Assembly (NCBI GenBank): GCA_964649235.1
Contig: CAZYOZ010000006.1
Coordinates: 1 to 57,190, forward strand
DNA: 57,190 nucleotides
Origin: an uncultured Candidatus Bathyarchaeia archaeon
GTDB lineage: Archaea; Thermoproteota; Bathyarchaeia; 40CM-2-53-6
Direction: 5' to 3'
Shown here: positions 1,453-52,873 of the stretch, piece after piece
Layout of the letters: each line of letters opens with the position of its first letter
Numbering within the stretch: the stretch's first letter is position 1
Notes under the pieces: generated by a model
The model's database searches: none
Told to the model about the DNA's origin: nothing
What the model saw: only the letters and a program-made list of their open reading frames with translations
Made by a program: the position numbers and the translations under genes

Positions 1453-1474
1453 GGAATGTGACCGCTGCGGCCGC

Positions 1475-29396: not shown

Positions 29397-29516
29397 GTCG
29401 TGACTTCTGCGAACGTAGAACGGTCTTTCACTACATTCTGTAATTACCAGTGAAATCATTCTCTCTCGAAAGTCTTTTCTGTGTACCGAGCAGCAGCCAT
29501 AGCAGGGAAAATCTCT

Positions 29517-34429: not shown

Positions 34430-35254
34430 CTAACGCGACACGTCCTCGACGCTATTCCACCATTCCTTGGTTTCACCAGTTCTCTGTCTTAGCTTCCACT
34501 TTAGGGTCTTGGGTTCGCGGTCGACTGTTTCTATGATTCGAGCAACTTTGTTCGAAACATCCGAGAAATCAGGTGTAGAGATCATTCCTTCGGCGAGGTA
34601 TTTCTCACCATACGACACTACGTCTCTGAGATTAGTTGTAGCATCTTTCCAGAACCCCCAATCGTCCGAGAGTACCACAGCAACATATCTCGTGTCGATT
34701 CTTTCTTGGTTGTCGGAGAGGCCCAGATTGTGGGCCCTAAGTAGGACGATCATGTCCTTCAAATCCTTCTCGCTTATCGAGTGAATCTGCAACTTCTCTA
34801 AAACAAGGTCTGTGGGTGAGATCGTGGGGTAGTCGAGCCGGAGTCGTCCCTTGGACGGGTCGGTTCCAAACGCAATGTCGTGGCTGAATTTCAAATTGTC
34901 AAAGAAAATGTCAATTTGATAGAGGTTTCCAGGATGACGGTAAAGTAGTCTTTCCTTTCCACGAAATAACAGGACGTTCTGGTCTACCGAATATCCCAGC
35001 GCGTCTTCCATTACCTCGCGCACATGGACTCTCTGCTTGCCGTATCCGATTAAGTCAATATCCGTGAAAGTTCGTCCGGCATCGCCAAGTCTCTTAAGGC
35101 TGCGTTGGAGATCAATGAAATCCTTTGAGTGCAGCGCTATAGCGAGCGCTCCAAGTAATCTGAGTACGACTCCTCGTTTCTCAGCAGTCTCAACTACTCG
35201 AAGTGCGTCGCTAACAATAGCCTGGTCGACAGAGGATTGTTCCAAGTCCAACAC
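34430..35254 (-). CDS. Nucleotidyltransferase-like protein, triad copy 3
   Basis: 'VLRLLGALAI', 'FTDIDLI', 'IDIFFD', 'LVLEKLQI', 'DWGFW' and 'KEWWNSVED'. Confidence 0.75.
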   Translation of the reverse strand: MLDLEQSSVDQAIVSDALRVVETAEKRGVVLRLLGALAIALHSKDFIDLQRSLKRLGDAGRTFTDIDLIGYGKQRVHVREVMEDALGYSVDQNVLLFRGKERLLYRHPGNLYQIDIFFDNLKFSHDIAFGTDPSKGRLRLDYPTISPTDLVLEKLQIHSISEKDLKDMIVLLRAHNLGLSDNQERIDTRYVAVVLSDDWGFWKDATTNLRDVVSYGEKYLAEGMISTPDFSDVSNKVARIIETVDREPKTLKWKLRQRTGETKEWWNSVEDVSR

Positions 35255-35274
35255 TTGGTTTTGCTCGGCGCCCC

Positions 35275-36231
35275 TTATCCTGTGGTAAATATGTAGTCCC
35301 TTATTCCCTTTTCATCAAGGTCGACTAGGAACCCTTTGAGGATCCCTTCGGTGTACTCGCTGCCTGGGTTGGCGCACAGGGTTCGCCCGATTTTTGCAAC
35401 TCCCTTCGATTCGTGTATGTGACCGTGAAGCCCAAGCAGCGGTTGGTAGGTTTCTATTGCCTTACGAACTGAAATGCTTCCGACGGGTGTCATTTCCATG
35501 CCACCACCAGGTTCAAGGACAGGCTTCAATTCCGCCGTAAGCTTCGGGGCCATGTCTATGGTAGTTCCGTACGGCGGACAATGAAAATTGAGAACGCAGT
35601 TGGAGCTGTCATTGACCTTGGAGAGCATGTCCTCAATCTTCTTGCTGAGCTCTTCCTCCGTAATGTCTCTGGGGCAATTCCAGGGGGTCATGTTCGTGTT
35701 ACCGCAGCTTGCCATTTCGTGTCTATCGTCTAAGTTGATGACCTTCCCTTCAGGGTAGATTACGTAGTCTGAGGAGTTCAGCATTGGGTCAATGTAGTAT
35801 TCGTCGTCGTTTCCTGCGGATATGAAACATTTGACCCCGGACCCTTTCAGGCGTTCTTCTGCTTGGCGGATCCACCGCTGCACCGAATCAGTCATCATTT
35901 TCTGAAATATTTGCTGCAGTCCGGCTGGGTCATTTGTCATTTCTTTAAGCCCTGCTTCGTCCGTCACATGGGCATAATATCCAACGGTTCTGACCGTTCT
36001 CATGATCGCCTTTAGCTCCTCGTCGTTCCGTGGGCGTTCTTCTTTTCCTAGGAAGTTCACGCGGTAGCTGCCGTCGTTCATTTTGACGATGGGGACGATC
36101 ATCTTCCCGGTTATGTCGCCGCCGAGGATGAGCACATTTGCCTTGTAGACTCTAGCGGCGCTTAGGAATTTACCGAAGCATCGGTCAGAGCCGTGGATGT
36201 CTGTAGCAAAGAAGATGCGGGTTCTGGGCAA
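35275..36231 (-). CDS. Metallophosphoesterase, triad copy 3
   Basis: 'FFATDIHGSD', 'GGDITGK', 'GNDD' and 'GHIHES'. Confidence 0.9.
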   Translation of the reverse strand: MPRTRIFFATDIHGSDRCFGKFLSAARVYKANVLILGGDITGKMIVPIVKMNDGSYRVNFLGKEERPRNDEELKAIMRTVRTVGYYAHVTDEAGLKEMTNDPAGLQQIFQKMMTDSVQRWIRQAEERLKGSGVKCFISAGNDDEYYIDPMLNSSDYVIYPEGKVINLDDRHEMASCGNTNMTPWNCPRDITEEELSKKIEDMLSKVNDSSNCVLNFHCPPYGTTIDMAPKLTAELKPVLEPGGGMEMTPVGSISVRKAIETYQPLLGLHGHIHESKGVAKIGRTLCANPGSEYTEGILKGFLVDLDEKGIRDYIFTTG

Positions 36232-36249
36232 GACATCTGGCCAGTTTGG

Positions 36250-37812
36250 CTATTCGGGCGGCAGCTCTTTGAATGATAGCTCTAATGGTATGCCTCTGCT
36301 CCGGTGGTAGGCCGAGGAGACGACGTATATGACAATGCCTATGACGAAGAGTCCAAGCGTGAATGTTACGATTGTGGGATTCAGTGAGCCGACGAAGGCG
36401 GGAGAGATACTTGCGTACCCCAGCCAGATCGAAATGAGAAGAGTCAGGAATCCAAGGATGGAGATTGCAGGTACAGGGCCGACCTTAGTCTTTGTGACCG
36501 ACGGTGAAACCTCGAAGATGTCTCTTCTTCTCCACGGGAAGACCATTCCGGAAATCGCCACAATTGATTGCATGATCATGTAACCAAACACTGCATACGC
36601 GAAATAGCCTAACAGCGGCGTGAAGCTCCACAAAGCCTGCAAGATTATGGCGATGATTGTCACCGCGATGAGGGCCATGTACGGAGAGTTGTGTTTGCGA
36701 TCGATCTTCGCGAGTGTTGTCGGGACCACGCGGTCGAAGGACCAAGCGAAGATGAAGCGGACTCCGATGAATATGTATGTCAGGGAGGATGACAGAGTCA
36801 TCATTGAGAAGGCAAACAATGTGAGGAAGATAGCTGCAGGGTTGCTGGTTGCGTACTGGAAAAGCACATGCAGGAATGGAGGCAACGAGAGCTGGTATGA
36901 CGGGTCGCCTGTTGCTGCAAGATAGGCCATGGCCCCAAGGAATTGACTACCCATTCCAATGTATGCTGCCTCGTACAGGAGCCATGTGATAAATCCGAAG
37001 ACTAGTATACTGCCTATTATTGCAATGAACTGCGACTTCCTGACTTCCTTTATTTCGCCAGCGTAGTAGACTGAAGCGTTGAACCCGATGAAGTTCAGGT
37101 AAGTGAAGGCTACTGCCAGGAGCGTTGCTGAGCTTGCGAATCCGGCCGGCAGGCCGGATTTCAAGGCTGTCTGGATCGCGTTGCTATAGTTCATTCCAGA
37201 GAGCGTATCGAAACTTGCAGCATACTGTGTTGGGTTCGTGCTCAAGAACGTACCGACGTATGCTATGACTCCGACCAAGATTAGGGCGAAGAAAATCCAG
37301 AATGCATAATGTGTGGCCTTCACTCCACGCGAAACTATTGCTGCACAAATCAGCCAGTACAGGACAGCCCACGCGAAAGTGAACTCGTTGGAGGACACTA
37401 AGGCCGCGGTGTCTGCTTGTCCGAAGTAGTGTAGGATTGGAGCTATTCCCCACTGGGTGAACCAAGGCATGTAGGAGCCTGCGATCGAGAGCAGTATCAG
37501 GAACAGAACGACATTGTTCATGAAGCCTAGGACTGGGTGTAGCACTCTGCTTACCCAGATGTAATCGCCCCCTGATCTGGGCATAGCAGCAGAATAGAGC
37601 GCGTAGAACAGACCGACGGTTACGGCGAGAGGAATCGAAATGAGCGCTGTGGTCGGAAGGTCAGCGCCGGGAAAGAGGGCTAACGCAAAGAAGCCATACA
37701 CGAAGATGGCAGTAGGGGCCATGAAGACAACATTATAGATCATGGCGTCCCATGCCGAGACAGCGCGAATGAGTCCTGACGCAGGTCTAGCGAATATTCT
37801 CTTCTCCTCCAT
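36250..37812 (-). CDS. APC-superfamily permease, triad copy 3
   Basis: 'MPRSGGDYIW' and C-terminal 'ELPPE'. Collinear with 1475..3040. Confidence 0.9.
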   Translation of the reverse strand: MEEKRIFARPASGLIRAVSAWDAMIYNVVFMAPTAIFVYGFFALALFPGADLPTTALISIPLAVTVGLFYALYSAAMPRSGGDYIWVSRVLHPVLGFMNNVVLFLILLSIAGSYMPWFTQWGIAPILHYFGQADTAALVSSNEFTFAWAVLYWLICAAIVSRGVKATHYAFWIFFALILVGVIAYVGTFLSTNPTQYAASFDTLSGMNYSNAIQTALKSGLPAGFASSATLLAVAFTYLNFIGFNASVYYAGEIKEVRKSQFIAIIGSILVFGFITWLLYEAAYIGMGSQFLGAMAYLAATGDPSYQLSLPPFLHVLFQYATSNPAAIFLTLFAFSMMTLSSSLTYIFIGVRFIFAWSFDRVVPTTLAKIDRKHNSPYMALIAVTIIAIILQALWSFTPLLGYFAYAVFGYMIMQSIVAISGMVFPWRRRDIFEVSPSVTKTKVGPVPAISILGFLTLLISIWLGYASISPAFVGSLNPTIVTFTLGLFVIGIVIYVVSSAYHRSRGIPLELSFKELPPE

Positions 37813-37921: not shown

Positions 37922-37955
37922 CTGGCTCCGGGCGGATTTGAACCCACGAGGGGCA
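37922..37955 (-). repeat. Degenerate partial copy of a tRNA T-arm/acceptor end (leftmost copy)
   Basis: The plus-strand 'ctccgggcggatttgaacccacgagg' has a T-loop complement identical to the tRNA at 47104. The stems no longer pair and there is no 5' half. Confidence 0.5.
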
Positions 37956-38036
37956 GAGGACGAACGGTTATGGCCAAGCTATGACGATGGACGATGACAG
38001 TTTGCGAATGTCACAAACGGTATTGGGATCGAATTC

Positions 38037-38435
38037 CTACCATGTTCTTATGAGACCTTCAACTTTGTCAAATGCTCTGTCTGTGGAAACGACCAACCCA
38101 TCCAGTTGTAGGGCCTCGGCCGCAATGCCCGCGTCGAAGTACTCAAGATCAGCTTCTTCCTCTAGTCTTGACACCAGATAGAAAATGGAAGGGCTTAATC
38201 TCGCGACCTTCCGATCTAGAGGAGAATAGTCCCGTAGCAGTGAAGCATACTTCTCCATTCGCTGCTCGAATGTGAAGCCTCTACTCTTCAGAGTGATATC
38301 GAATTCGAAGAGTGCGAACGCGCCCAAGTAGACTTGTGGTTCACCTATTAGCTGCAGATGCCTCTTAGCACGTTGATGGTGTCTATCCTTCGAATCCGCT
38401 GTAGCGAAGAGCACAACAGTATCTAGAACGGGCAA
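38037..38435 (-). CDS. vapC: PIN-domain toxin (VapC-like)
   Basis: Acidic residues at the expected PIN positions ('VLDTVV', 'FEFD', 'YFDAGIAAEA', 'STDRAF'). It abuts the antitoxin gene. Confidence 0.85.
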   Translation of the reverse strand: MPVLDTVVLFATADSKDRHHQRAKRHLQLIGEPQVYLGAFALFEFDITLKSRGFTFEQRMEKYASLLRDYSPLDRKVARLSPSIFYLVSRLEEEADLEYFDAGIAAEALQLDGLVVSTDRAFDKVEGLIRTW

Positions 38436-38660
38436 CTAGCTTTTCCTTCGGAATATGAAACGTGAAGCTTCATGTCGTTCTTCCTTGAACTCAAATCCTG
38501 TGAGGCTAGCAGCGAACTTGCGATCACGTGGTGCTACCAATATCACGCCGCCTTTGAAGGGAATAGCGACGAGTTTATCCCCCTTGTTGATGCCTGCGAT
38601 CTCTCGTGTCTTTTTGTCGAGAACGACTCTATACTTGTCGTCGAGTGCGACTTCGCCCAA
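38436..38660 (-). CDS. vapB: AbrB/SpoVT-fold antitoxin (VapB-like)
   Basis: 74 aa with 'YRVVLDKKTREIAGINKGDKLVAIP', a looped-hinge-helix type. Its stop is adjacent to the vapC start. Confidence 0.8.
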   Translation of the reverse strand: MGEVALDDKYRVVLDKKTREIAGINKGDKLVAIPFKGGVILVAPRDRKFAASLTGFEFKEERHEASRFIFRRKS

Positions 38661-38775
38661 GCGTCATCTAGTCAGATGTTTGATGTCCCACATATTAAAC
38701 GCATTTCCCACTATGGTAAAGAACAATCTCCATGATTGCGGACTCCTAGAAACTGTGGAGCGAGGCAAAGAGGCT

Positions 38776-38910
38776 TGGCGCCGGGGGTGGGACTTTCACC
38801 CCCTGGGTTCGCTCAAAACCCCCCAGGTTGGATTTGAACCCACGAGGCCCCAAGGGCCAACAGCTCTCTGGCCTGTTCCGCAGGTCGTTCCCGAGGTCCG
38901 CAGGCTCTCG
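38776..38910 (-). repeat. Partial tRNA copy (3' two-thirds) with a hairpin insert in the T-arm region
   Basis: On the minus strand it shares '...AGCTGTTGGCCCTTGGGGCCTCGTGGGTTCAAATCC' and 'CCCACCCCCGGCGCCA' with the tRNA at 47104. A ~38-nt insert carries a CCTGGG/CCCAGG stem. No 5' acceptor strand was found. Confidence 0.6.
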
Positions 38911-38929
38911 GTCACATGTCATTTCGGAC

Positions 38930-39378
38930 CTATTTCCTGACGATAGACTTAGCCTTCGCGTGTAGTTCCTCCGCGAACCTTAGATCTTCTTCCAACTCGG
39001 CGAGCTTAAACACCCTAGTCTGTTGGTATCCCGCCAGATGAAGCCCGGTTGCCAAGGCCAGGTATTTGTCATATTCTTGTCGTGAGATTCTTCCGCGTCT
39101 CAACAAGGTATCCCTAATCAGGAATTGAAGAGCAAGTCTCCCTGTGAACTTCTTTATCCTTCGGGGTATTCGATTTTCCTAACTCCGAAGTTGTACAGCA
39201 GGCCTTCGAGAGTCGTTTCGACGGCGCGAAAGATCTCCTCGGCTGCCGGAAAGAGCCTGTTTTCGTCAAGATTCTTTCGTGCGGATTCCATGAACTCTTC
39301 CGCTCTCCTCAGGCTCCATCTAACCAAATCTTCTCGGCTTTTCGCCATATAGGACCTCCCCCTTTGCGTGTATGTCAC
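38930..39378 (-). pseudogene. HEPN-domain gene, apparently frameshifted
   Basis: The N-terminal part is the ORF 39154..39378 ('...LRRAEEFMESARKNLDENRLFPAAEEIF...'). Another frame continues to a stop at 38930 as 'IKKFTGRLALQFLIRDTLLRRGRISRQEYDKYLALATGLHLAGYQQ...'. It lies directly downstream of an MNT gene. Confidence 0.55.
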
Positions 39379-39964
39379 TTACAAACGAGTTCTCCTTGAG
39401 GGCAGCGACGTATTCCTCAGGGGAAAGTACGACCGGGTACACAGAGATTCCATACTTGTAACCAATCTCTGAGTTGACGTAAGAAATGAGAGCTTTCCTT
39501 ATGGAGGCAACGCTCTTCGACGAGGCTACTATCGCAATATCTATGTCGCTCAGCTCCTTCACTATGTCGCTTCTTATTGCTCCTCTCGAAAGACTTCCGA
39601 ACAGAATTGCGGCCTGTATCTTGAACCTCTTGGTTACATACTTAACAATCTCAAGCGCTGCTCGCCTGTAGACGGCCTCCAAGTTCCTGAACAAGCTCTT
39701 AAGCGGTCTAAAGAGGAAGTGTTTGCGGTTGATGCGGTACATCTTTCCTTTGCCTACTCTCTCCAACAAAACAAGGCCCGAGTTTATCAAATCCGTCATC
39801 TGCCTATTCACCTCGGAAACCGAAGTTCCAGCTTCTTTTGCTAGCTCCACTTCCAAGAAAGACTTCTCAAGATTGCACACAAGCACTGCTAAGGAATTAA
39901 CCTTGGTCCGGCTTCCTAGCATTCTTTCCAAGTACATCGTATCACTTTCGGTTTTCCGAAACAT
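39320..39964 (-). CDS. Winged-helix + minimal nucleotidyltransferase (MNT) fusion protein
   Basis: N-terminal 'ELAKEAGTSVSEVNRQMTDLINSGLVL' wHTH, then the 'AAILFGSLSRGAIRSD...SDIDIAIV' GS...DxD NTase signature. Confidence 0.8.
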   Translation of the reverse strand: MFRKTESDTMYLERMLGSRTKVNSLAVLVCNLEKSFLEVELAKEAGTSVSEVNRQMTDLINSGLVLLERVGKGKMYRINRKHFLFRPLKSLFRNLEAVYRRAALEIVKYVTKRFKIQAAILFGSLSRGAIRSDIVKELSDIDIAIVASSKSVASIRKALISYVNSEIGYKYGISVYPVVLSPEEYVAALKENSFVSDIHAKGEVLYGEKPRRFG

Positions 39965-40104
39965 GTTTTGGTTTTCCGAAATAAAAACTTGAGATGCATC
40001 TCGCTCGATGGTTTTGAAGTTCCTAAAATATGGGACATACAGCTTACAATTGTCTCCCAGAAAAGGAGTCGGGAGATGGGCTGTTTAGAATCGGTACGGT
40101 AACA

Positions 40105-40132
40105 GGCGCCGGGGGTGGGACTTGAACCCACG
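40105..40132 (-). repeat. Short partial tRNA 3'-end copy
   Basis: The plus-strand 'ggcgccgggggtgggacttgaacccacg' is nearly identical to 47105..47132. Confidence 0.6.
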
Positions 40133-40274
40133 GGTGTGAGTTGAGTTCACTCCGCGAACTGGAGGGCGTCTTCTCGGGATTTGAAGAAGATTCTTCCACT
40201 TCTCACACACCGAAGACCTGTGGCTCAAGAATAAAGACTAAACTTGACAGTTTGCTTTCTATGGGTGTTCAGTC

Positions 40275-40985
40275 ATGTCCGAGGACAATGCGCTTCAAAT
40301 TCCAATACTTTCTCAGCTCCTGGGGCGCGACGTGCCGAGAAGCAGGTTCTTGGTGACACTCTTTGAAGCGTCGACGGATTGGCCAGCTTTGGCACTTACT
40401 ATCGCGGCGGGAGTACTAAAGCAGGGGCATGTCGTCAACTTTGTGGCTGTTTCTGCACCTCCAGCCGAGGTCAGGCGCGAACTTCAACGTGCACTACCGA
40501 ATCTAACAGAGCTGGAAGAAACCAAGAAATTCTGGTTATACGATTGGCACACATGGATGACCGGGAAGAAATCAGATGAACCATTCTCGGTAGATTCCCT
40601 TTCAGTTGCAAAGTTAAGCGCCGACGTGCCGATCTTCTGGAGAGACTACTCCCCAATTTTCGATTTCGCGATTGTCGACAACGTATCGACGATACTCAAG
40701 TACAACGATGAACGCCCCTTCATGCAATGGTTCGACAGACTCATCGCCAAGGTGAGACCCATGAAAGGGATCCGACTCTACGGTGTTGTCAAAGGATTCC
40801 ACAGCGAACCGCTCTACTCAAACATCGAAATGTTAGCTGACGGTGTCTTCGAGTTGACGTTGCGCGAGAGAAACGACGAACTGCAGAATGCCATTCGGAT
40901 TAAGAGCTTCAAGGGATTAGCTCACACAACAAAATGGCGAACCCTAAAGGTCAACTCAACCGGTCACGCAAGTCTCGTCGAATAA
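40275..40985 (+). CDS. KaiC/RecA-like fold protein with a degenerate Walker A loop (paralog 2 of 3)
   Basis: 'LLGRDVPRSRFLVTLFEASTDW' replaces the P-loop. Walker-B-like 'FAIVDNVS' and the C-terminus 'AIRIKSFKGLAHTTKWRTLKV' are present. Confidence 0.7.
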   Translation: MSEDNALQIPILSQLLGRDVPRSRFLVTLFEASTDWPALALTIAAGVLKQGHVVNFVAVSAPPAEVRRELQRALPNLTELEETKKFWLYDWHTWMTGKKSDEPFSVDSLSVAKLSADVPIFWRDYSPIFDFAIVDNVSTILKYNDERPFMQWFDRLIAKVRPMKGIRLYGVVKGFHSEPLYSNIEMLADGVFELTLRERNDELQNAIRIKSFKGLAHTTKWRTLKVNSTGHASLVE

Positions 40986-41118
40986 TCGTGCCAATCGTCC
41001 TTTCATGTGTGTGGTATGAATGGTGCGAGCGTCCAAGTTTGAACCGTCGTCGTTCGTTTGAAAAGTGTGTGTGCGCACCATTGATACATCACACACTGAG
41101 AACCAACGAGGCGAAGAA

Positions 41119-41934
41119 CTACTCCAACGTAACTTGGTTCTCAGTCATCTTCAGTAGATGCCATCGTGCGTCGAAACCAATATTGCGCATACTCCTGATC
41201 CTGATCAAGTTCTTCGGCTCCTCGCCCGATTCGTCAAGCTTCATGTCAATAATCGCGTCGTTAGCATCTTCTAGCTGCTTGTAGACCCAATCGCTGTGGA
41301 TGCCCCTAATCATGCCCCCGATGAGCGATGATTTCGTTAACCTCGCCACGGGCAGACCTCGAGTAAGCAGGAATTCGACCCAACTCTTCTCCTCATTGAA
41401 CCGGCTCATGGGAGATGCACTGTCCACGATTCTCAGTACCTCCGGTATTGGTGGACCTGTAAGCTGAGTCTTTACGAAATCGATGCTTACTTCAGCCGCC
41501 TTCAAGCTACTGTACCCAAACCTTTCCGTTGATTTCAGACCTAACGTTGCCGTATAGTAGTCATGGATGCGTAGCCTGTCAGCCTTTTCAAGTTCCTCGC
41601 AATCCAGTCCGAGCTTTTTGAGTTGCAGGCGAATCGTCTCCGGTGGCTGGGCGATTGCAGTAATGCTGACTCTTTCGCCGCCTGACTTCAGCCATCCGGC
41701 TGCAATTGTATGAGAAGCCGCGTACCAGTGAGACCCTGGGTCATATTCCACCAGGATGTTTGTCCCAGCGGGAATCGGTTCTTTGGTCAAATCCTCAATT
41801 ATCGAAATGCGTGGCAAGAAGCTGCACACAACATGATGCGGCTCGGTCGCAGTTGTGTCTTTTGGTGATTCGCTGAATTTCTCGGTGTGTGTGCGCACCA
41901 CTATGCCCACAAACATCCACCCAAACCACATCAC
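41119..41934 (-). CDS. KaiC/RecA-like fold protein with a degenerate Walker A loop (paralog 3 of 3)
   Basis: 'PIPAGTNILVEYDPGSHW', 'LRIVDSAS' and 'LIRIRSMRNIGFDARWHLLKM'. The N-terminal start is uncertain. Confidence 0.7.
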   Translation of the reverse strand: MMWFGWMFVGIVVRTHTEKFSESPKDTTATEPHHVVCSFLPRISIIEDLTKEPIPAGTNILVEYDPGSHWYAASHTIAAGWLKSGGERVSITAIAQPPETIRLQLKKLGLDCEELEKADRLRIHDYYTATLGLKSTERFGYSSLKAAEVSIDFVKTQLTGPPIPEVLRIVDSASPMSRFNEEKSWVEFLLTRGLPVARLTKSSLIGGMIRGIHSDWVYKQLEDANDAIIDMKLDESGEEPKNLIRIRSMRNIGFDARWHLLKMTENQVTLE

Positions 41935-41993
41935 AGTTTGGGGTTTGGGAGGGTTTTGTTACCCTAAAATACGAGGCGTCGTCCAACCGAGGC

Positions 41994-42401
41994 ATGACAT
42001 CGATGCCAAACGCTGAACACCCGAATGCGAAGGTCGTTCGACGGCTCTATGATGCGTTCGCCCGGGGTGATTTGGAGACAGCCAAGAGCTGCTTCGTCCG
42101 CGACGCGGTTTGGCACTTGCCGGGACGGAGTCGCATCGCTGGCGACCATCAGGGTGTGGATGCGATCATCCGCTTTTTTGGGAAGCTGAAGGAGCTTAGC
42201 GGAGGCACATTCAAGGCGGAGCTCACCGATGTGGTTGCAAATGATCGACACGCGGTAGCACTGCAGCATGCCACAGGGACACGCGGTACGAAACGTCTTG
42301 ATCTCACGGCCTGTCAAGTGATGCGCATTAAAGATGGCAAGATTCTTGAGGTACGAGGTTACTACTCCGACCCGTACGCTCTGGACGACTTCTGGTCGTA
42401 G
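41994..42401 (+). CDS. SnoaL-like / NTF2-fold protein
   Basis: 'VVRRLYDAFARGDLETAKSCFVRDAVWHLPG' is the typical SnoaL_2 N-terminus. ATG at 41994. Confidence 0.75.
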   Translation: MTSMPNAEHPNAKVVRRLYDAFARGDLETAKSCFVRDAVWHLPGRSRIAGDHQGVDAIIRFFGKLKELSGGTFKAELTDVVANDRHAVALQHATGTRGTKRLDLTACQVMRIKDGKILEVRGYYSDPYALDDFWS

Positions 42402-42415
42402 GCGCTGATGTCCAA

Positions 42416-43309
42416 ATGCGTAGGGACATAACCTTTGCCAGCAAGGGATTGCGTTGTAGTGGCCTGCTGTACGTGCCGGATGACCTGAAATCGGGTCAGA
42501 AGGCACCAGCCATTGTAATGGCCAACGGTCTCACTGGCGTCAAGGAAGCTGTCTTGCCAGATTATGCTGAGCGCTTTGCTGCAGCTGGCTTTGTAACGTT
42601 GGCCTTTGATTTTCGTTTCTTCGGGGATAGTGAAGGCGAACCCCGCAGTCAAGTGTTTCCTCTCGAGATGACAGAGGACTGCCGCAATGCCATTACCTGG
42701 GTTTCCCAGCAGCCAGAGGTGGACCCTGGGCGGATTGGTGTATGGGGAACTTCGTATGGCGGAGTGTTGGTTATATGGGTAGGAACCTTCGACAAGCGAG
42801 TCAAAGCCGTGGTTGCCCAAGTTCCAGCAATCCTCCCCCCGTCCATGCGACGAGCTAGCAACCCTGAAGGATGGGACCGTTTGGGTGAGCTACTGTTGCG
42901 CGACCGCATTGAACGCTACAAGACCGGAGTGGTCAACTACATGAAACTCGTGGCACCAGAAGGGGAGCCATGTTGCCTGCCAGGAAAAGAAGCATACGAT
43001 GGCGTTATGACTATAGTGAAAGCTCCGAACTGGCGTAACCAGATAACCCTTGAGTCCTTGGAGAAGATGCGTGAGTTTGATGCCGTCAGTTCGATCGAGT
43101 TGATGTCACCAACGGCGCTGCTGCTAATCCCTGCTGAAAAGGAAGGTTTGATTCGCTCTTACATGGATATAGTCAGGGCAACCTACGAGAAGGCCCGGCC
43201 GCCTAAAGACATGATCGTCCTGCCAATCCGCCACTTTGAGATCTACCGTGAGCCTTGGCTGTCGAAGTCTGCGGATGCAGCGATCAATTGGTTCAAGCAG
43301 TATCTCTGA
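42416..43309 (+). CDS. Alpha/beta hydrolase (dienelactone hydrolase / acetyl-esterase-like)
   Basis: 'IGVWGTSYGG' nucleophile elbow within an alpha/beta pattern. Confidence 0.8.
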   Translation: MRRDITFASKGLRCSGLLYVPDDLKSGQKAPAIVMANGLTGVKEAVLPDYAERFAAAGFVTLAFDFRFFGDSEGEPRSQVFPLEMTEDCRNAITWVSQQPEVDPGRIGVWGTSYGGVLVIWVGTFDKRVKAVVAQVPAILPPSMRRASNPEGWDRLGELLLRDRIERYKTGVVNYMKLVAPEGEPCCLPGKEAYDGVMTIVKAPNWRNQITLESLEKMREFDAVSSIELMSPTALLLIPAEKEGLIRSYMDIVRATYEKARPPKDMIVLPIRHFEIYREPWLSKSADAAINWFKQYL

Positions 43310-43440
43310 GAATCATGTAGCGGACGAGCGCTTCTTTGCTACCGCTTTCAGGGTGCTGATGGCGCTTGGATTGTGCTGGCTCTGTAGCCTTGCTTGCGCA
43401 TCCAGAAGCCGAAGGCTAGGATCTCCGATAGGTTCTGTGT

Positions 43441-43550
43441 TGGCGCCGGGGGGGATTTTCACCCACGTGGGTTTGTCGGAAACCCCCCACGGTTGGATTT
43501 GAACCCCCGTGGTTTTCCCCGCTTGACTCGATGAACCCCGGAAATTCGTT
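43441..43550 (-). repeat. tRNA-derived structured repeat (copy D)
   Basis: Acceptor-like end 'tggcgccggggggg', a hairpin insert (CGTGGG/CCCACG), a TTCAAATCC T-loop motif, and a ~45-nt block shared with copy E. Confidence 0.6.
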
Positions 43551-43758
43551 GGAGGAAGAGTGTTTCTCGTCGGACATATGAGGTTTCGTTCACGCATATT
43601 GCCTGTCTTGCACTAAACTCTTAGGTCGGCGGGTCGAGTTCAATTTGCTCCGCTCGCGTACTTCGAAGAATGCAAGGTGTGTCACAGCACGGAAGAACGG
43701 TCCAGTGAAAATAGAGGGTACAAGTCCAACCTCGCGCGAAAATTATAGGCGGACTTTC

Positions 43759-44064
43759 TTAGTATCCGTACTTCTTTGCTTCTTCACCGAGGGCAGCTAC
43801 AACTTTGGGGAACTCATCTAGACCGAGGGCCGGTGATATTTTCACGTCTGTCTTGAACAGATAGAAGAACGGCGCCACCTTTCTGGTGAGTTCGTCGTTT
43901 GAGTTTGCTTCCACTACGAAGAAACCGTACCTGAAGGTGAACCAAGCAGCGAGAGGCTTCATTCGCTCTATGGCCTCTCCCATCTTCTTCTGCAAATCCG
44001 GACTTTTCTCGAAACTATTCTTCGCATCCACGGGGGGATTGAACTCAATCATGTATTTCGCCAT
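43759..44064 (-). CDS. Small DUF3303-like protein
   Basis: 101 aa with a 'MAKYMIEF...' alpha/beta pattern. The family assignment is from memory and tentative. Confidence 0.6.
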   Translation of the reverse strand: MAKYMIEFNPPVDAKNSFEKSPDLQKKMGEAIERMKPLAAWFTFRYGFFVVEANSNDELTRKVAPFFYLFKTDVKISPALGLDEFPKVVAALGEEAKKYGY

Positions 44065-44278
44065 AATTATTCCACCTCCTGACCTGCACCGACAAGGCGA
44101 GTTGAGACGCGCCTCTCCGGCATGCTAGTTAAGGTTATGTCTTGTCGCAAATTCGCTCTTCATCAATCAAATTTCGGTCTATTTGATGTCCAATAAAATG
44201 ACCAGGGGGAGGGACAGATTCTGGCCGCGCAATCAGACACACCCTTCTCCAATGGAACAGAGCGTACAAGTTTTGTAA

Positions 44279-44392
44279 GGCGCCGGGGGTGGGATTTTCC
44301 TCCGCCCTCTAGGGTTCCGTAGTTTTCCCCTAGAGCGGGATTTGAACCCCCGTGGTTTTCCTCGCTTGACTGGATGAACCCCGGAAGTTTGT
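44279..44392 (-). repeat. tRNA-derived structured repeat (copy E)
   Basis: Same architecture as copy D, with the hairpin stem CTCTAGGG/CCCTAGAG. Confidence 0.6.
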
Positions 44393-44571
44393 CTGGGTCC
44401 GAGGTTTTCTCGCTAGACAACTAAACTCACGCTGCACTCATCGCATACCTTACACTTAGTGTTTAGGTCAACCTTAGCCAATGTTGAGAAATTCTGGTGC
44501 GCGTCAGCTGGCCGACGGCTATTTATTTCGTCAAGCCACACTGCTTCCTGAGTCTCTCTCTTAGCTGAAGT

Positions 44572-46026
44572 TCAGGGCAGCTTCATCTTATTCAGAAGTT
44601 CGAGGAACCTGGGGTCTTCCCGTGCTGCGTTTGATGTGGGCCATTTGTTCGACATGGGCAAGAAAGGGTCTCGAGCTTCGTAGGCCTTCTGCATCCATTG
44701 GTAGCCGCTATCTTTCTCTCCGAGCATGTAATAGATTACGCCGATCTCTGCTGGCGAGGCGTATCCGTTGAACTTCTTCGATAGCAAGCCATTCAATATC
44801 TCCCTGGCATTCTCCTTCAATCCGACGAACGCATAGACCTTAGCTTGGAACTCGCGGAAGAGCGCCTCATCGGAGATGCTTATCATCTTATCAGTTTCCT
44901 TGATAGCATCTTCCACTTTGGACTCCGTTGCGTTGAGAAGTGCAAGAATCGAATGTGCCCTTGCGAAGTTCGGATTAATCTTCAGCATTTCCATGCAAAG
45001 TTCTCGAGCTCTGTCGTTCTTTCCCGCCATCCAGTTCACAAGGCCGCAAATGGTTCCCGTAAAGGGCGACACTGGATCCAGCTCGTACGCCCGGGTTGCT
45101 TCTGAAAGCGCCTCGCCGAAGCGCCCCATCATCGCTAGAAACCAGGCGTACCAGACGTGGGCTTCAGCTAGACTCGGATTGAGCGATACGGCTTCCATAA
45201 AACTCGTTTCGGTTGTCGCCCAATCCCAGTCATATTGGTTGGCTATTAACGCCCGCACCTTGTGAGCTTCCGCAAGTCTGTCGTCGAGCGAGAGTGCCCG
45301 TGCCAAGAACTTCTTCGCTTTGGGAAAGGCCTCGAGAGGAGACATGGACTCACCCGCCAAAGCTGCATAGCAGTAGGCCACCTTTGCGTACGCAAGCGCG
45401 AACCCTGAATCCTGCTCGCACGCTAGCTCAAAGTATTGAATTGCCCTTTCGATATCGCGGGGCGAGCCTCTGTTGAAGTGATAGACTCCCTTGAGGTACA
45501 GGTTGTGTGCCTCGACGCTTTCTGTGATAGCTTTTCCTATGCCTTTCCTTTCGCCAGCGAGGAGTTCCAGCTTGAGCGCATCTGCGACTCTGCTGGCTAT
45601 GTCGCTCTGGATCGCGAATACGTCATGCAGCTCTCTGTCGTAGCTTTCGGCCCAGAGGTGCTTGTCGTGCTTTGCATCGATCATTTGCACTGTAATGCGA
45701 ACTCTGTTTCCTGCCTTGCGGACGCTTCCCTCGAGTATCGTTCCAGCGTTCAATTCACGTCCGACCTCGACAAGGGGCTTGGACTTGGTTTTGTATTGCA
45801 TAACGGAGGTGCTCGATATCACGCTTAACTCGTGAAGTTTCGATATTGTCGAGATAAACTCCTCAGTCAGACCATCGGCGAAGTACTCGTCCTTCGGGTC
45901 AGGACTGATGTTCTTCAAGGGCAACACAGCCACCCTGCGTTGATCGAGCGTCAACTGCTTTGAAGAAAACGCTGGCGGAACGAAACTCTTCGACCGAGCA
46001 AGGTCGGCTGGTTGCAAAGGCCCCAC
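44572..46026 (-). CDS. TolB-N-terminal-like domain + TPR-repeat protein
   Basis: 'RVAVLPLKNISPDPKDEYFADGLTEEFISTISK...LEGSVRKAGNRVRITVQMIDA...LWAESYDREL' followed by multiple 34-aa TPR-like repeats. Confidence 0.8.
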   Translation of the reverse strand: MGPLQPADLARSKSFVPPAFSSKQLTLDQRRVAVLPLKNISPDPKDEYFADGLTEEFISTISKLHELSVISSTSVMQYKTKSKPLVEVGRELNAGTILEGSVRKAGNRVRITVQMIDAKHDKHLWAESYDRELHDVFAIQSDIASRVADALKLELLAGERKGIGKAITESVEAHNLYLKGVYHFNRGSPRDIERAIQYFELACEQDSGFALAYAKVAYCYAALAGESMSPLEAFPKAKKFLARALSLDDRLAEAHKVRALIANQYDWDWATTETSFMEAVSLNPSLAEAHVWYAWFLAMMGRFGEALSEATRAYELDPVSPFTGTICGLVNWMAGKNDRARELCMEMLKINPNFARAHSILALLNATESKVEDAIKETDKMISISDEALFREFQAKVYAFVGLKENAREILNGLLSKKFNGYASPAEIGVIYYMLGEKDSGYQWMQKAYEARDPFLPMSNKWPTSNAAREDPRFLELLNKMKLP

Positions 46027-46192
46027 TGCTACCTGACAACGTATTCTGTCGAAATACCCGAACCGGTTGATATAGAGGCTTTCCTCAAGTCCGGCATAAG
46101 AGATTCGATGATTCGGTGGTCACTAGACTGAACTGCCGACTCGTGGCAAGCCTCGCTCATTGTCGCATGAGGAACATGAAGCTCAAGGGGTT

Positions 46193-46245
46193 GGCGCCCG
46201 GGGTGGGATTTGAACCCACGAGACCCAAAGCATCAGGAGCTACCG
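46193..46245 (-). repeat. Partial tRNA 3'-end copy (acceptor variant CCCGGGC)
   Basis: The plus-strand 'tggcgcccggggtgggatttgaacccacgagacccaaagc' is collinear with 47104..47143 with substitutions. No matching 5' strand was found. Confidence 0.55.
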
Positions 46246-46334
46246 CAGCTTTCAAACGTGGACAAACAGGGAGCCTGGTACGTTTATATCGTAGACTCGT
46301 ATCCCCTTCGTACGTATCCCAGCCGGGACGCGCT

Positions 46335-46586
46335 ATGGGACGAATTGTGGTCATCGAGGGCGACAGAGTCACTTTGCCGCGAGAGTTCCGAAAGGAGGCG
46401 AAGATCCGAAGAGGGGACGTCCTAGAGTATAGGGTGGAGGGTGGCTCTTTGGTTCTTTCTAGGCGAGAGAAGGTACAAGATCCGACGAAACGAATCTTTG
46501 GAATCGCCAGCGACGTCTCTGGTGACTTGGTGGGCGACGAGCTCTTCCTCAGCGAGGCAATGAGAAAGTTGAGTAGGTCAAAGTGA
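46335..46586 (+). CDS. vapB: AbrB/SpoVT-fold antitoxin (VapB-like)
   Basis: 'MGRIVVIEGDRVTLPREFRKEAKIRRGDVLEY'. The upstream part of the track ORF reads through the tRNA-like repeat and is rejected. Confidence 0.8.
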   Translation: MGRIVVIEGDRVTLPREFRKEAKIRRGDVLEYRVEGGSLVLSRREKVQDPTKRIFGIASDVSGDLVGDELFLSEAMRKLSRSK

Positions 46587-47047
46587 ATTTTCTCGATTCA
46601 ACGATTTTCATCAACTGGTTCAAGGCCGCGAAACGCGATCTCTCCAAGCTAGAGGTTGCGGCGTCGGGGTTCATCCTTCGCAGAATTGAAGACGGTGAGT
46701 CAACGTTAACGTCGACAATCGTGAAGGATGAGGCGTCGCTTTGGCTTGCCAGATACAAGCGATCGGTGCTTCCAAATTTCCTGGACAGCATCCAGTCGTA
46801 CACAAGCCTGAAGATCGAACCTCCCATCATGGAGGATCAGCTGGAAGCTGAGCATCACTTGGGCTTGTATCGGCTGGGTTACCTCGACTGCATCAATCTA
46901 GCCATGATGCAGAGAAACAGGATCAACACGATATACAGCTCAGATACAGGATTCGATGCTGTACCAGGAGTTCGTCGAGTACTACAAGAGCTTAGCAAAG
47001 ACAGACAGTTCCCGAGCTTCCAGAAATGGGCACGCGAAAGCTTGTGA
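46583..47047 (+). CDS. vapC: PIN-domain toxin (VapC-like)
   Basis: The GTG start overlaps the antitoxin stop (GTGA). Motifs 'FLDSTIFI', 'YLDCINLAMM' and 'SSDTGFD' are present. Confidence 0.85.
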   Translation: MNFLDSTIFINWFKAAKRDLSKLEVAASGFILRRIEDGESTLTSTIVKDEASLWLARYKRSVLPNFLDSIQSYTSLKIEPPIMEDQLEAEHHLGLYRLGYLDCINLAMMQRNRINTIYSSDTGFDAVPGVRRVLQELSKDRQFPSFQKWARESL

Positions 47048-47103
47048 GAAGCAACCCTTGCGAAACCTTGCGGAAACCCGATCTGAACACTCGGCGCGGT
47101 AAC

Positions 47104-47245
47104 TGGCGCCGGGGGTGGGATTTGAACCCACGAGGCCCCAAGGGCCAACAGCTATCCTGACCCAGTGCTAACCGCAGATCTCGAGGTTCAACGTCCCCTT
47201 TACGCTAAAGGGCTCTGTCGCCTTACCTAGCTAGGCTACCCCGGC
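47104..47245 (-). tRNA. Intron-containing class-II tRNA, candidate tRNA-Ser(CGA), with encoded CCA
   Basis: Minus-strand features: acceptor GCCGGGG/CCCCGGC, discriminator G and CCA. D arm GCC..TAGCTAGGTAA..GGC, T arm GTGGG-TTCAAAT-CCCAC, and long variable arm GGCCC-TTG-GGGCC. The candidate anticodon arm is ACAGA/CTCGAGA/TCTGC, interrupted and followed by ~28-nt and ~26-nt inserts. Confidence 0.6.
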
Positions 47246-48993: not shown

Positions 48994-49713
48994 TCATCGG
49001 CCCACTCCAAAGTACATGCGTGCGAGTTCGGGTTGATTGAGCAGTTCATCAGCGCCTCCGGAGAATGATACTTGGCCGCTGACGAGCAACAGAGCCTTGT
49101 CACCAATCTCGAGGGCCCTCTTCGCATTCTGCTCCGCAAGCGCTATAGCCAAGCCGTACTCGTCTCTGATCCTAGCGATTCTGTCGAGAACCTGCTTTGC
49201 GATTTTGGGTGCAAGGTTTCCGGTTGGTTCGTCGAATAGCATTACCCTTGGCCTTCTAATCAGCGCCATGGCCATGGCCACCATTTGTTTTTCTCCGCCG
49301 CTCAATGTCCCCGCTTTTCGGTTCCAGTGCTCTTTCAGGACAGGAAACGTATCAGTCATCTCTGTTTCTCTTTTCTGGCTTTCGTCTTTCTGCAGAACGT
49401 ATCCCGCCATCAGCAGGTTTTCTCTTACTGCCAATTCGTTGAAGACATTATTGACTTGAGGAAGATATGCGATGCCGAACCGTGAAACCTTGTCGGGAGG
49501 GCTTCGAGTTATGTCATTTCCGTTGAACAAGATCCTGCCTGAGTAAACGTCGGTTAGTCCGAAGATCGTTTTCAAAAGTGTGCTCTTACCACTTCCGTTC
49601 GGTCCAACGACTACTGTGATCTGTTTCTCGGGGAATTCAGCTGAAACATCAAACAGTACATGTAGCCTACGATAGCCAGCAGAGATCTTCTCCGCCGAAA
49701 GCAGGCTTCCCAA
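48994..49713 (-). CDS. livF: Branched-chain amino acid ABC transporter ATP-binding protein (LivF-type)
   Basis: Walker A 'GPNGSGKST', signature 'LSGGEKQ' and Walker B 'MLFDEP'. Confidence 0.9.
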   Translation of the reverse strand: MGSLLSAEKISAGYRRLHVLFDVSAEFPEKQITVVVGPNGSGKSTLLKTIFGLTDVYSGRILFNGNDITRSPPDKVSRFGIAYLPQVNNVFNELAVRENLLMAGYVLQKDESQKRETEMTDTFPVLKEHWNRKAGTLSGGEKQMVAMAMALIRRPRVMLFDEPTGNLAPKIAKQVLDRIARIRDEYGLAIALAEQNAKRALEIGDKALLLVSGQVSFSGGADELLNQPELARMYFGVGR

Positions 49714-49737
49714 GGCTAGACCTCTTTTGGTCAGAAG

Positions 49738-50499
49738 CTACGTGCCAAGGTAGGCCTCAGCAACTCGTGGGTCCTTAAGGATCTCGTCTGGTTTTCCTTC
49801 AGCAATGATTTTGCCTCGAAACATCGCGTACACCTTGTCCACGTATGGAATTGCGAGTTCTAGCCTGTGCTCTATTAGCAGGAAGGTCAGGTCTGCTTTT
49901 CGGTTGAGTTCTGTGAGGTGTTGAAACACTTCGTGTGCAAGCGTAGGGTTGACCCCTGCCGCGGGTTCGTCCATTACGAGCATGCGTGCACCGCTCATCA
50001 GAGCGCGTCCAGCCTCCAAGAGTTTGAGCTGTCCCCCGCTAAGCTGGTATGCCTCCCTGTCCCAGAGTTCATTAAGCTTGATGAGTTCCAGTACCTTGAA
50101 CGCAGTTTCTACATGTTCCTCCTCCGCCTTCAGCCACTTTCTGCCTAGGGAAGACACTGGCCCTTCTCCGGCATTGTCACGTTTCGCGACCAAAAGGTTC
50201 TCGAGAACGCTTAGTTTGAGGAAGGGTTGAGGGATCTGAAAGGTTCGAACCAAGCCCAGGCGGAATGTTTCATGCGGTGGCATGCCAGTAATATCATTAC
50301 CATTGAATATGATGCGGCCGGTGTCGGGCTTGTAGACTCCGGTAAGAACGTTAACTAAAGTCGTCTTTCCGCTGCCGTTCGGTCCAATCAGCAAGGCGAG
50401 CTCGCGATGTCTCACACCTATGCTCGCTTTCTCAAGCGCGACCACACCACCGAAACTTTTGCTTACTTCGGTCGCGGTCAGGAGTATTCCGTCTTGCAT
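49738..50499 (-). CDS. livG: Branched-chain amino acid ABC transporter ATP-binding protein (LivG-type)
   Basis: Walker A 'GPNGSGKTT', 'LSGGQLKLLE' and 'LVMDEPAAG'. Confidence 0.9.
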   Translation of the reverse strand: MQDGILLTATEVSKSFGGVVALEKASIGVRHRELALLIGPNGSGKTTLVNVLTGVYKPDTGRIIFNGNDITGMPPHETFRLGLVRTFQIPQPFLKLSVLENLLVAKRDNAGEGPVSSLGRKWLKAEEEHVETAFKVLELIKLNELWDREAYQLSGGQLKLLEAGRALMSGARMLVMDEPAAGVNPTLAHEVFQHLTELNRKADLTFLLIEHRLELAIPYVDKVYAMFRGKIIAEGKPDEILKDPRVAEAYLGT

Positions 50500-50552
50500 G
50501 ATTGCATTAAAAAAATGGGAGTGGGATTAGTGTTTTTGGGTAGAGCAGAAGT

Positions 50553-51851: not shown

Positions 51852-51870
51852 TTTCAAAATCACCGTAGGC

Positions 51871-51878
51871 TATTAAAA
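51871..51878 (-). promoter_or_regulatory. Candidate TATA box for a leaderless SBP-livG-livF transcript
   Basis: The minus-strand 'ttttaata' is centred ~24 nt upstream of the ATG at 51851. Confidence 0.3.
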
Positions 51879-51933
51879 CAACCTGAGCGTAGTTAAGATT
51901 TGCCGTAAATGACTTATAGAGAGCTCTCGGTGT

Positions 51934-52866: not shown

Positions 52867-52873
52867 CTTTCGC

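Follow-up and report, generated by a model that had tools for sequence, protein, structure and literature searches.

How a single tRNA gene comes to be accompanied by six truncated copies of its own 3' end, with short blocks of genes between them, is the question raised by a stretch of DNA from an uncultured soil archaeon, a Candidatus Bathyarchaeia (GTDB lineage Archaea; Thermoproteota; Bathyarchaeia; 40CM-2-53-6). This stretch, hereafter the window, is 57,190 nucleotides long (positions 1 to 57,190 of the forward strand of contig CAZYOZ010000006.1, GenBank assembly GCA_964649235.1), and it contains an array of 9.3 kb, bounded by the gene for a serine tRNA, tRNA-Ser(CGA), at one end and by a permease gene at the other, in which the copies mark off six segments of 824, 1231, 3308, 772, 1842 and 881 bp (segments 1 to 6, the last lying next to the tRNA). 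The original prediction left two explanations standing, namely successive integrations at one tRNA that have since decayed into a stack, or an integron-like cassette array in which a tRNA-derived repeat takes the part of an attC site. In our view the array is very probably a decayed stack of serial site-specific integrations at the 3' end of tRNA-Ser(CGA), an explanation upheld by integrase relics within the window and by the states of the same site in relatives; the integron-like explanation has not stood up.

The intact gene at 47104-47245 on the minus strand encodes a class II tRNA with G73 and an encoded CCA, as established by Rfam and by alignment with 15 metagenome orthologues. Rfam reports it as the sole tRNA of the window (47107-47245, minus strand, 41 bits), and ARAGORN in its default mode found no tRNA there. 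With introns allowed, ARAGORN proposed Pro(TGG) with a single 63-nt intron, an assignment overruled by alignment with the intron-less orthologue on contig L100. The anticodon arm of this orthologue reads ACAGA-TTCGAGA-TCTGT, and since the molecule also has a long variable arm and G73, its identity is Ser(CGA), with the anticodon of the window gene at 47183-47181. Two introns interrupt the window gene, both in the anticodon arm and on the minus strand: intron 1 (47186-47213; 28 nt) follows ACAGA at position 31/32, and intron 2 (47151-47176; 26 nt) lies in the 3' strand of the anticodon stem at about position 40/41. The gene in its present state lacks an intron in the T-loop.

The copies were located by blastn of the tRNA region against the window, together with motif pattern searches against shuffled controls, in which a 28-mer 3'-end pattern had 0 matches and a 15-mer T-arm motif, found 8 times in the window, was expected 1.7 times. 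These searches recovered every one of the six co-oriented partial copies that had been claimed beside the one intact gene, and, as had also been claimed, no 5' acceptor half adjoins any copy, Rfam seeing one tRNA only; the copies, having no 5' halves, are thus not complete and independent tRNAs. All six are on the minus strand, and they are named F1 to F6 with increasing proximity to the tRNA. F6 (46192-46222; 31 nt) runs from the T-arm to CCA with no intron and one mismatch in the acceptor strand, and serves as a junction twice, distally for segment 6 and proximally for segment 5. F5 (44279-44354; blastn pieces 44279-44297 and 44337-44349) is interrupted in the T-loop at about 44296-44336 and has a hybrid T-stem, with GGGGG as its 5' strand and CCCAC as its 3' strand, as expected from a crossover in the T-loop region. 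F4 (43441-43511; blastn pieces 43441-43452 and 43495-43506) is interrupted at about 43453-43494 and carries a self-consistent T-stem variant, GGGGG/CCCCC. F3 (40097-40132; 36 nt) has no intron, and extends from the T-arm to the 3' end and through 7 nt of shared downstream flank. F2 (38776-38865; blastn pieces 38776-38792 and 38830-38865) is the long one, starting at the anticodon-stem 3' strand and ending with CCA, with an insertion in the T-loop at 38793-38829. F1 (37922-37951; blastn core 37934-37951; acceptor part beginning at about 37922) is degenerate, with a 2-nt deletion and substitutions and no intron, and is probably the oldest copy. The copies thus range from 30 to 90 nt, and several carry disabling changes, namely a 2-nt deletion in F1 and in F4, the T-stem mismatch in F5 and the acceptor mismatch in F6. 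The description of the copies as stretches of about 28 nt needs correction for F2, F4 and F5, which are each broken in the T-loop by a hairpin-bearing insertion of 37-42 nt. Likewise, the predicted longer reach of the 38.8-kb copy is real as far as the anticodon-stem 3' strand, its second piece being a 36-nt exact match to the tRNA past the insertion; beyond this, up to about 38905, the sequence resembles the anticodon loop and intron 2 only weakly.

By their extents the copies fall into two classes, one from the T-arm to the 3' end and the other from the anticodon region to the 3' end. Tyrosine integrases reportedly use just these T-loop and anticodon-loop sublocations of tRNA genes, a pattern that Williams is said to have described in 2002, and the two length classes fit them. 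The 36-nt exact repeat shared by F2 and the tRNA also suffices to break short-read assemblies: L085, a Logan contig from the same species, stops exactly at the inner boundary of F2 (window position 38865), and many metagenome contigs with tRNA-Ser likewise end at or near the tRNA.

Evidence that an integrase made these copies comes from the window itself. The prediction that no integrase is present proved right in that no intact recombinase remains, since Pfam detects no recombinase domain in any open reading frame (ORF) of 200 aa or more in the 57 kb, and wrong in that relics lie at both borders of segment 3. Directly after F4, at 43316-43440 on the minus strand, is a relic of the 5' coding part of a tyrosine integrase gene, which translates to LSEILAFGFWMRKQGYRASTIQ...STLKAVAKK and fits the family consensus LSEILAFGFWMRKQGYR.STIQ. 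It is about 80-85% identical over about 115 nt to the 5' DNA of the integrase genes on contigs L206 and L218, with a BLASTP E value of 4e-10 and an hhalign E value of 6e-5 against the integrase family; a 1-nt deletion shifts its frame, and the homology is cut off beside the stop codon of the hydrolase gene of segment 3. At the opposite border, the element-side arm before F3 (40133-40199, minus strand) is homologous to the sequence before the distal attachment (att) copy of L206 (19/29 aa, E = 2e-11; about 75% nucleotide identity) and is in frame with the core, which makes it a candidate N-terminal integrase piece (VEESSSNPEKTPSSSRSELNSHPWVQV). Because integrase-related ends are found at both of its borders, segment 3 is a captured element with both termini. 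The arms before F4 (43507-43577, minus strand) and F5 (44350-44420, minus strand) are partners, with 78% identity over 93 nt and a short common peptide in a second frame; the small ORF before F4, MS.EK..PGFI.SS.ENHGGSNP, reads through the core in that frame and may be an N-terminal relic of a second integrase subfamily. Pfam, applied to small junction ORFs from sites apart from 43.4 kb, gave no match. A weak similarity of 15-25 nt to the start of integrases with an intron-less core follows the present tRNA and the copies at 40.1 and 37.9 kb.

The family to which these relics belong was recovered by a protein search with the ORF of L206, which yielded 139 homologues, many of them annotated as integrase. 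Full-length members have 283-322 aa and match PF00589, and those read carry the RH.R and Y motifs. The integrase ORFs that were read start in translated tRNA sequence, which takes three forms: WVQIPPPA..., corresponding to the intron-less core; GVK(I/V)PPPAP..NLSEILAF..., corresponding to a core with a type-A T-loop intron (see below); and LVGSNPTPGAP..., which is the second frame, also used by the ORF across the 46.2-kb copy of the window. A search of the PDB placed XerA/XerC-like proteins (4a8e), IntI4 and XerH nearest, and the same search gave no match to the SSV1 integrase structure. Gene callers start these ORFs (P0122-P0134; L221:199-1146; L206:2694-3248) at GTG or TTG codons within the tRNA gene, and the frame is open across the T-arm, the intron and the acceptor strand; an integrated integrase may be co-transcribed with the tRNA, or translated from within the tRNA transcript. 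Together these observations point to a large family of tyrosine integrases in Bathyarchaeia, of which full-text literature searching found no description.

What the site looks like before and after such an insertion can be read from relatives. On contig L221 an intact tRNA-Ser is followed, directly and in frame, by an intact integrase of 315 aa, whereas on L219 the integrase belongs to an element with a Prim-Pol, a D5-type helicase and a second integrase, and on L218 it precedes a defence-like island with DUF499, DUF1156, SNF2-helicase and PLD genes (L218:10980-20915). L218 belongs to the NCBI Bathyarchaeia metagenome-assembled genome (MAG) GCA_041643115.1, and its island looks to be of the DISARM type and carried by the element. 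On L206, a contig of 1.1 Mb, the tRNA-Ser gene is intact and has a type-A intron; after it comes an ORF that begins in the T-arm and matches Phage_integrase with E = 1.7e-8, and the next ORF continues the catalytic domain and then jumps to a short stretch leading into a second att copy. As read from its sequence, these 0.8 kb hold two att sites and, between them, an integrase with an internal deletion.

Empty and differently filled sites, which comparison of synteny among relatives was to reveal, were both found. The 229-kb contig L107 carries the dehydrogenase gene that neighbours the tRNA in the window, then AAA_33, tRNA-Ser and, 180 nt downstream, a branched-chain amino-acid ATP-binding cassette (ABC) transporter, with no tRNA fragments, and so represents an empty site; the 216-kb contig L134, whose downstream ORF lengths and spacing are as in L107, was also counted as empty. 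Contigs L137 and L139 have the same tRNA/dehydrogenase neighbourhood (dehydrogenase 70-71% identical to that of the window) and arrays that differ from the window's, with MNT-HepT, HicAB pairs, DUF2283 pairs, MazE-PIN and Fic-HTH modules separated by fragments of 14 to 88 nt. The 14-nt fragment, a stump on L137, and the broken integrase of L206 indicate deletional erosion in progress. The array of L203, which includes HicAB and two PIN pairs, is similar, the likeness here being that of the array itself. A metagenome scan for tRNA-Ser(CGA) gave at least 119 loci, of which at least 18 would have two or more co-oriented 3' copies, a suggestive count that was tallied from exact-pattern positions; many of the remaining loci are on contigs that end at or near the tRNA.

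The nearest genome records for the window's dehydrogenase are Bathyarchaeia MAGs, at about 72% identity, and a look-up of the exact protein returned no record. Around this gene in GTDB species representatives, no tRNA or T-arm motif adjoins and no flanking gene is colinear; where relatives have a permease 78-85% identical to that of the window, its neighbours are others and include no tRNA. The ABC transporter operon of L107 lies downstream of the tRNA (L107:5635-10516), and an operon of the same type is found in the window at 48994-54037, on the opposite side of the dehydrogenase. The array thus stands at a break in synteny, possibly the product of att-mediated rearrangement. On L205, inside an 8-kb segment between two att copies, a 340-aa protein (L205:1014-2036) weakly matches the N-terminal SAM-like domain of phage integrases (E = 3e-4), is fused to DUF6144 and has no catalytic domain.

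The hairpin-bearing insertions in F2, F4 and F5 have counterparts in intact genes. Among 16 aligned intact tRNA-Ser(CGA) genes, 11 carry additional sequence where the T-loop meets the 3' strand of the T-stem, and a wider alignment of 31 sequences resolves three versions of it: type A, AACCCTGGGGGG...CCCAGGGGGGTGAAAGT, with a variant CCGTGGGG/CCCACGG; type B, CGCC.TAGAGG...GGGCGGGGGAAACT; and type C, present in L195 and L144. The copies at 38.8 and 43.4 kb are of type A and that at 44.3 kb is of type B, so that, as judged from alignment, the insertions in the three copies are T-loop bulge-helix-bulge (BHB) introns, as in the intact tRNA-Ser genes of relatives. In the model proposed here, the T-stem is the outer helix, TTCA/TGAA forms a central helix of 4 bp, AAT and A(G/A/C)T are two 3-nt bulges, and CC/GG together with the hairpin makes up the inner helix (hBHBh'). 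A cut after the second base of each bulge would restore the T-loop TTCAAAT and place the intron at position 59/60. Of the cells in the type-A alignment, 97.9% form standard pairs, a share that drops to 60% or lower once the partners are slid; one pair is compensatory, GC in 5 sequences and CG in 4. For type B the corresponding values are 81% and at most 62%, and most sequences lack the fourth pair of the central helix. Minimum free energy (MFE) folds of single sequences did not recover the 4-bp central helix, and their z-scores were unremarkable, so that the model rests on the pair counts of the alignments. These counts suggest a BHB fold as a well-fitting model, with thin evidence from covariation, and the introns would presumably be spliced. 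Across Bathyarchaeia contigs (L098-L216) tRNA-Ser(CGA) has from 0 to 3 introns: L100 has none, as the spacing would indicate for L119 and L138 too, most loci have the two anticodon-arm introns, and many add a T-loop intron of type A, B or C. In viral contigs, scans with the T-loop-intron pattern matched phage tRNA clusters only, and scans with 3'-end patterns gave 0 matches and then 1 irrelevant tRNA.

From these data we propose that the 3' end of tRNA-Ser(CGA) serves as attB for Bathyarchaeia mobile elements with Xer-like tyrosine integrases, whose integrase gene would abut or overlap the tRNA-like att core. At each integration the element's copy of the tRNA 3' part would become the new functional 3' end, and the old end would be displaced downstream, a fragment without function. 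At least six integrations would have stacked in this way, leaving the oldest fragment farthest from the tRNA, and deletion would later have removed the integrase genes and most of the cargo; deletion is also the presumed route to the small size of the segments. Toxin-antitoxin (TA) pairs would be kept since their loss harms the host, and may shield neighbouring DNA from deletion between direct repeats, while segments with no TA pair could be lost by recombination between such repeats; the enrichment in TA pairs would thus be best explained by survivorship, with a stabilising role for the pairs. As some elements would carry a T-loop BHB intron in their att core, each swap could give the tRNA an intron or remove one. 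The history of the 3' end, from oldest to newest, would then read none (37.9 kb), A (38.8), none (40.1), A (43.4), B (44.3), none (46.2) and none (present gene), and the T-loop intron would have been gained and lost repeatedly because the att core was replaced, provided that every insertion entered the intact gene.

Several observations weigh against this account. Clear integrase relics at both ends are found for segment 3 only; in segments 1, 2 and 6 only about 15-25 nt beyond the core show similarity, and that weakly, and the small ORFs that read through the copies at 43.4 and 44.3 kb (segments 4 and 5), taken as N-terminal integrase pieces, have no database homologue. No integrase was found in five related arrays (L130, L137, L139, L205 and L110), and no element was seen as a free circle. 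The tRNA-proximal segment, which should be the youngest, is a bare TA pair in the window, in L139 and in L203, and this is somewhat unexpected under slow decay. The order of events, moreover, assumes that each insertion hit the intact tRNA and never a fragment.

The account can be extended in ways that we regard as rather doubtful, namely that the T-loop intron is a weapon between competing elements, or that the TA mini-segments can still be mobilised in trans by integrases. In the first case, the intron version of each integrase subfamily would rewrite the attachment site of the host, and the next element would have to recognise it or recombine upstream; the array would then be the fossil record of a contest between elements, written as the intron states none, A, none, A, B, none, none. 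In the second case, the locus would function as the archaeal counterpart of an integron, with a tRNA as its foundation.

A full replacement of the stack by integron-like cassettes, or by units resembling cis-mobilizable elements (CIMEs), mostly TA pairs, each with a tRNA-derived att site and moved in and out as units by an integrase acting in trans, whether encoded by a full-size element or at another place in the genome, seems improbable. It would account for the cassettes of about 0.5-0.9 kb with one TA pair each that lie between tRNA fragments in L137, L139 and L203, for the frequency with which the tRNA-proximal cassette is the small one, and for the want of an intact integrase within 57 kb, given that these communities are rich in integrases of the family, which could work in trans. 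The three features that had made the integron reading attractive are, however, otherwise explained. The missing recombinase is answered by the relics within segment 3, at its borders, and by the intact integrase of the same family on the tRNA of L221; the hairpins are T-loop BHB introns that also occur in intact tRNA-Ser genes; and small, TA-rich cassettes are the expected residue of decay if TA pairs resist loss, the internal deletion in L206 having shrunk an element below 1 kb, to a broken integrase of about 0.8 kb, and the stump of L137 showing erosion by deletion. In addition, the att copies, with their three sequence types and two length classes, form no uniform site, genes lie in both orientations, and there is no attI, IntI or common promoter. 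Finally, five contigs of the same species (identical permease) from five samples have the same array content wherever they overlap it, and because they agree there, the array is fixed in the sampled population.

Insertion by homologous recombination, with no integrase, in which circular DNA bearing a tRNA-Ser fragment, such as loops released from other arrays, enters by a single crossover at the tRNA gene, so that the recombination machinery of the host would by itself build and reshuffle the array, is in our judgement highly improbable. The fragments would offer 24-130 nt of homology and a Campbell-type crossover would give the same layout, an intact tRNA with a distal fragment, but the ends of the fragments are not random, clustering instead at the edge of the T-arm and in the anticodon region, and the junctions, in relatives as in the window, are precisely where integrase genes or relics stand. 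Split tRNAs occur in some archaea, and three copies keep a foldable BHB intron and T-arm, but the idea that the copies are functional RNAs, either split-tRNA 3' halves or tRNA-like small RNAs regulating the adjoining TA genes, has very little probability, in view of the single Rfam tRNA, the lack of 5' halves or complementary leaders, the disabling changes in F1, F4, F5 and F6 and the variation in copy length.

If the array is a decayed stack, its surviving genes are two intact-looking TA pairs, one broken pair and a few accessory genes, on both strands within segments as well as between them. Pfam on the ORFs of the window confirmed the six segments with the genes that had been listed for them, at sizes of 0.8-3.3 kb. 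Segment 1 (37952-38775) holds a PIN toxin (38037-38435, minus strand) and a small partner of antitoxin size (38436-38660, minus strand). Segment 2 (38866-40096) has a winged helix-turn-helix (wHTH)-MNT nucleotidyltransferase (Polbeta; 39320-39964, minus strand) and a truncated HEPN gene (39154-39378, minus strand), which matches profile positions 1-49 of 117 only, Pfam giving no match for the pieces downstream of it. Segment 3 (40133-43440) contains two KaiC-like genes (40275-40985, plus strand; 41119-41934, minus strand), a SnoaL_2 gene (41889-42401, plus strand) and an alpha/beta hydrolase gene (42416-43309, plus strand). Segment 4 (43512-44278) encodes a DUF3303 protein (43759-44064, minus strand), segment 5 (44355-46191) a TPR protein (44572-46026, minus strand), and segment 6 (46223-47103) a MazE/AbrB antitoxin within 46116-46586 (plus strand) and a PIN toxin (46583-47047, plus strand).

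A derivation of the KaiC-like pair of segment 3 as homologue of the KaiC-like gene of the L205 element, or of the neighbour of that gene, was ruled out. An exact 16-nt direct repeat, GTGTGTGTGCGCACCA, at 41065-41080 and 41885-41900 flanks the minus-strand KaiC-like gene, and a 41-nt imperfect inverted repeat (41006-41095) lies between the two KaiC-like genes of segment 3. A third KaiC-like gene is located outside the array at 17669-18523, where only the C-terminal part of the protein matches the KaiC profile. Elsewhere in the window there are three paralogous APC-family amino-acid permeases (regions 499-3040, 34430-37812 and 29481-31145), two of which each precede an ORF of about 318 aa that has no match in Pfam; a block of permease, 318-aa and 274-aa genes is kept in relatives, where a formamidase/acetamidase gene comes next. 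Three long ORFs of 640, 357 and 563 aa (7235-9157, 11197-12270 and 18639-20330) have no Pfam match at E <= 1e-4.

It remains to set the locus beside known systems. With integrons, among them the TA-rich chromosomal superintegrons, it shares a row of small modules, a recurring structured repeat and an enrichment in TA pairs, which probably stabilise the row. It differs from them in having no IntI, attI or Pc promoter, in repeats that are tRNA 3' ends and not attC palindromes, in mixed gene orientation, in relics inside the modules, and in showing no variation of its cassettes among contigs of the same species. CIMEs are att-flanked remnants with no integrase, stacked at one site, as here, and their mobilisation in trans is documented (review PMC5704250); nothing in the window shows that its remnants still move.

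Decayed stacks of elements at tRNA genes are well known, and the array itself is not new. Tandem tRNA-integrated elements and archaeal "gene capture" were reportedly described by She et al. in 2001 and by Williams in 2002. Arrays that arise when elements with tyrosine recombinases re-use one att site are likewise known (Krupovic et al. 2019, PMC6563490). The window resembles these in its intact tRNA at one end, its co-oriented 3' scars, the re-use of the site, the loss of the integrase and the trapping of cargo, and is unlike them in packing six scars into 9.3 kb with no intact integrase, in its Bathyarchaeia host, and in att cores of three versions that differ by a T-loop intron.

In SSV-type elements the "suicidal" integrase gene is split on integration (Badel et al. 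2020, PMC7253208). The present family is similar in that the integrase reading frame has the att core at, or inside, its 5' end, so that integration would part an upstream piece from the remainder, and in that the frame stays open through the tRNA-derived core when integrated. A conserved in-frame piece precedes the distal att copy. It is dissimilar in that the family is Xer-like by sequence (PF00589), with no SSV1 structure match, and in that the putative N-terminal piece has about 23 codons, no unsplit gene having been observed; on L219 a stop codon stands two codons upstream of the called integrase start.

The closest precedent concerns the introns. For tRNA-Thr of Caldiarchaeum, at one locus, an intron-bearing attP was proposed to have delivered the intron, and it was suggested that such an intron may shield the element from later invaders (Sugahara et al. 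2012, PMC3293823); a full-text literature search on bulge-helix-bulge, integrase, attachment site and tRNA intron found that paper alone to be relevant. There, as here, an att copy with an intron takes the place of a part of the tRNA gene that had none, and a tRNA fragment is left over. The Caldiarchaeum case is unlike the present one in being a single event, located on the 5' side (position 24/25), in which the recombinase and the tRNA do not overlap, whereas in the window the introns are in the T-loop at 59/60, three intron types are linked to integrase subfamilies, and several gains and losses would have occurred at one locus. That tRNA introns protect genes from integration is an idea attributed to Randau and Söll, and Sugahara et al. 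2012 described a single case that favours it. The tRNA-Ser genes of Bathyarchaeia, with 0 to 3 introns, three T-loop types and sites that are empty, occupied or fossil, amount to many natural replicates, which makes the question of intron spread and protection testable by comparative genomics and recombination assays, and the link between att core and T-loop intron merits systematic follow-up. If integration delivers or removes a tRNA intron, this bears on the spread of non-canonical introns among archaeal tRNAs, and what is new beside the Caldiarchaeum precedent would be the same process of intron delivery in Bathyarchaeia, in the T-loop, with three intron types and a multi-step record at one gene.

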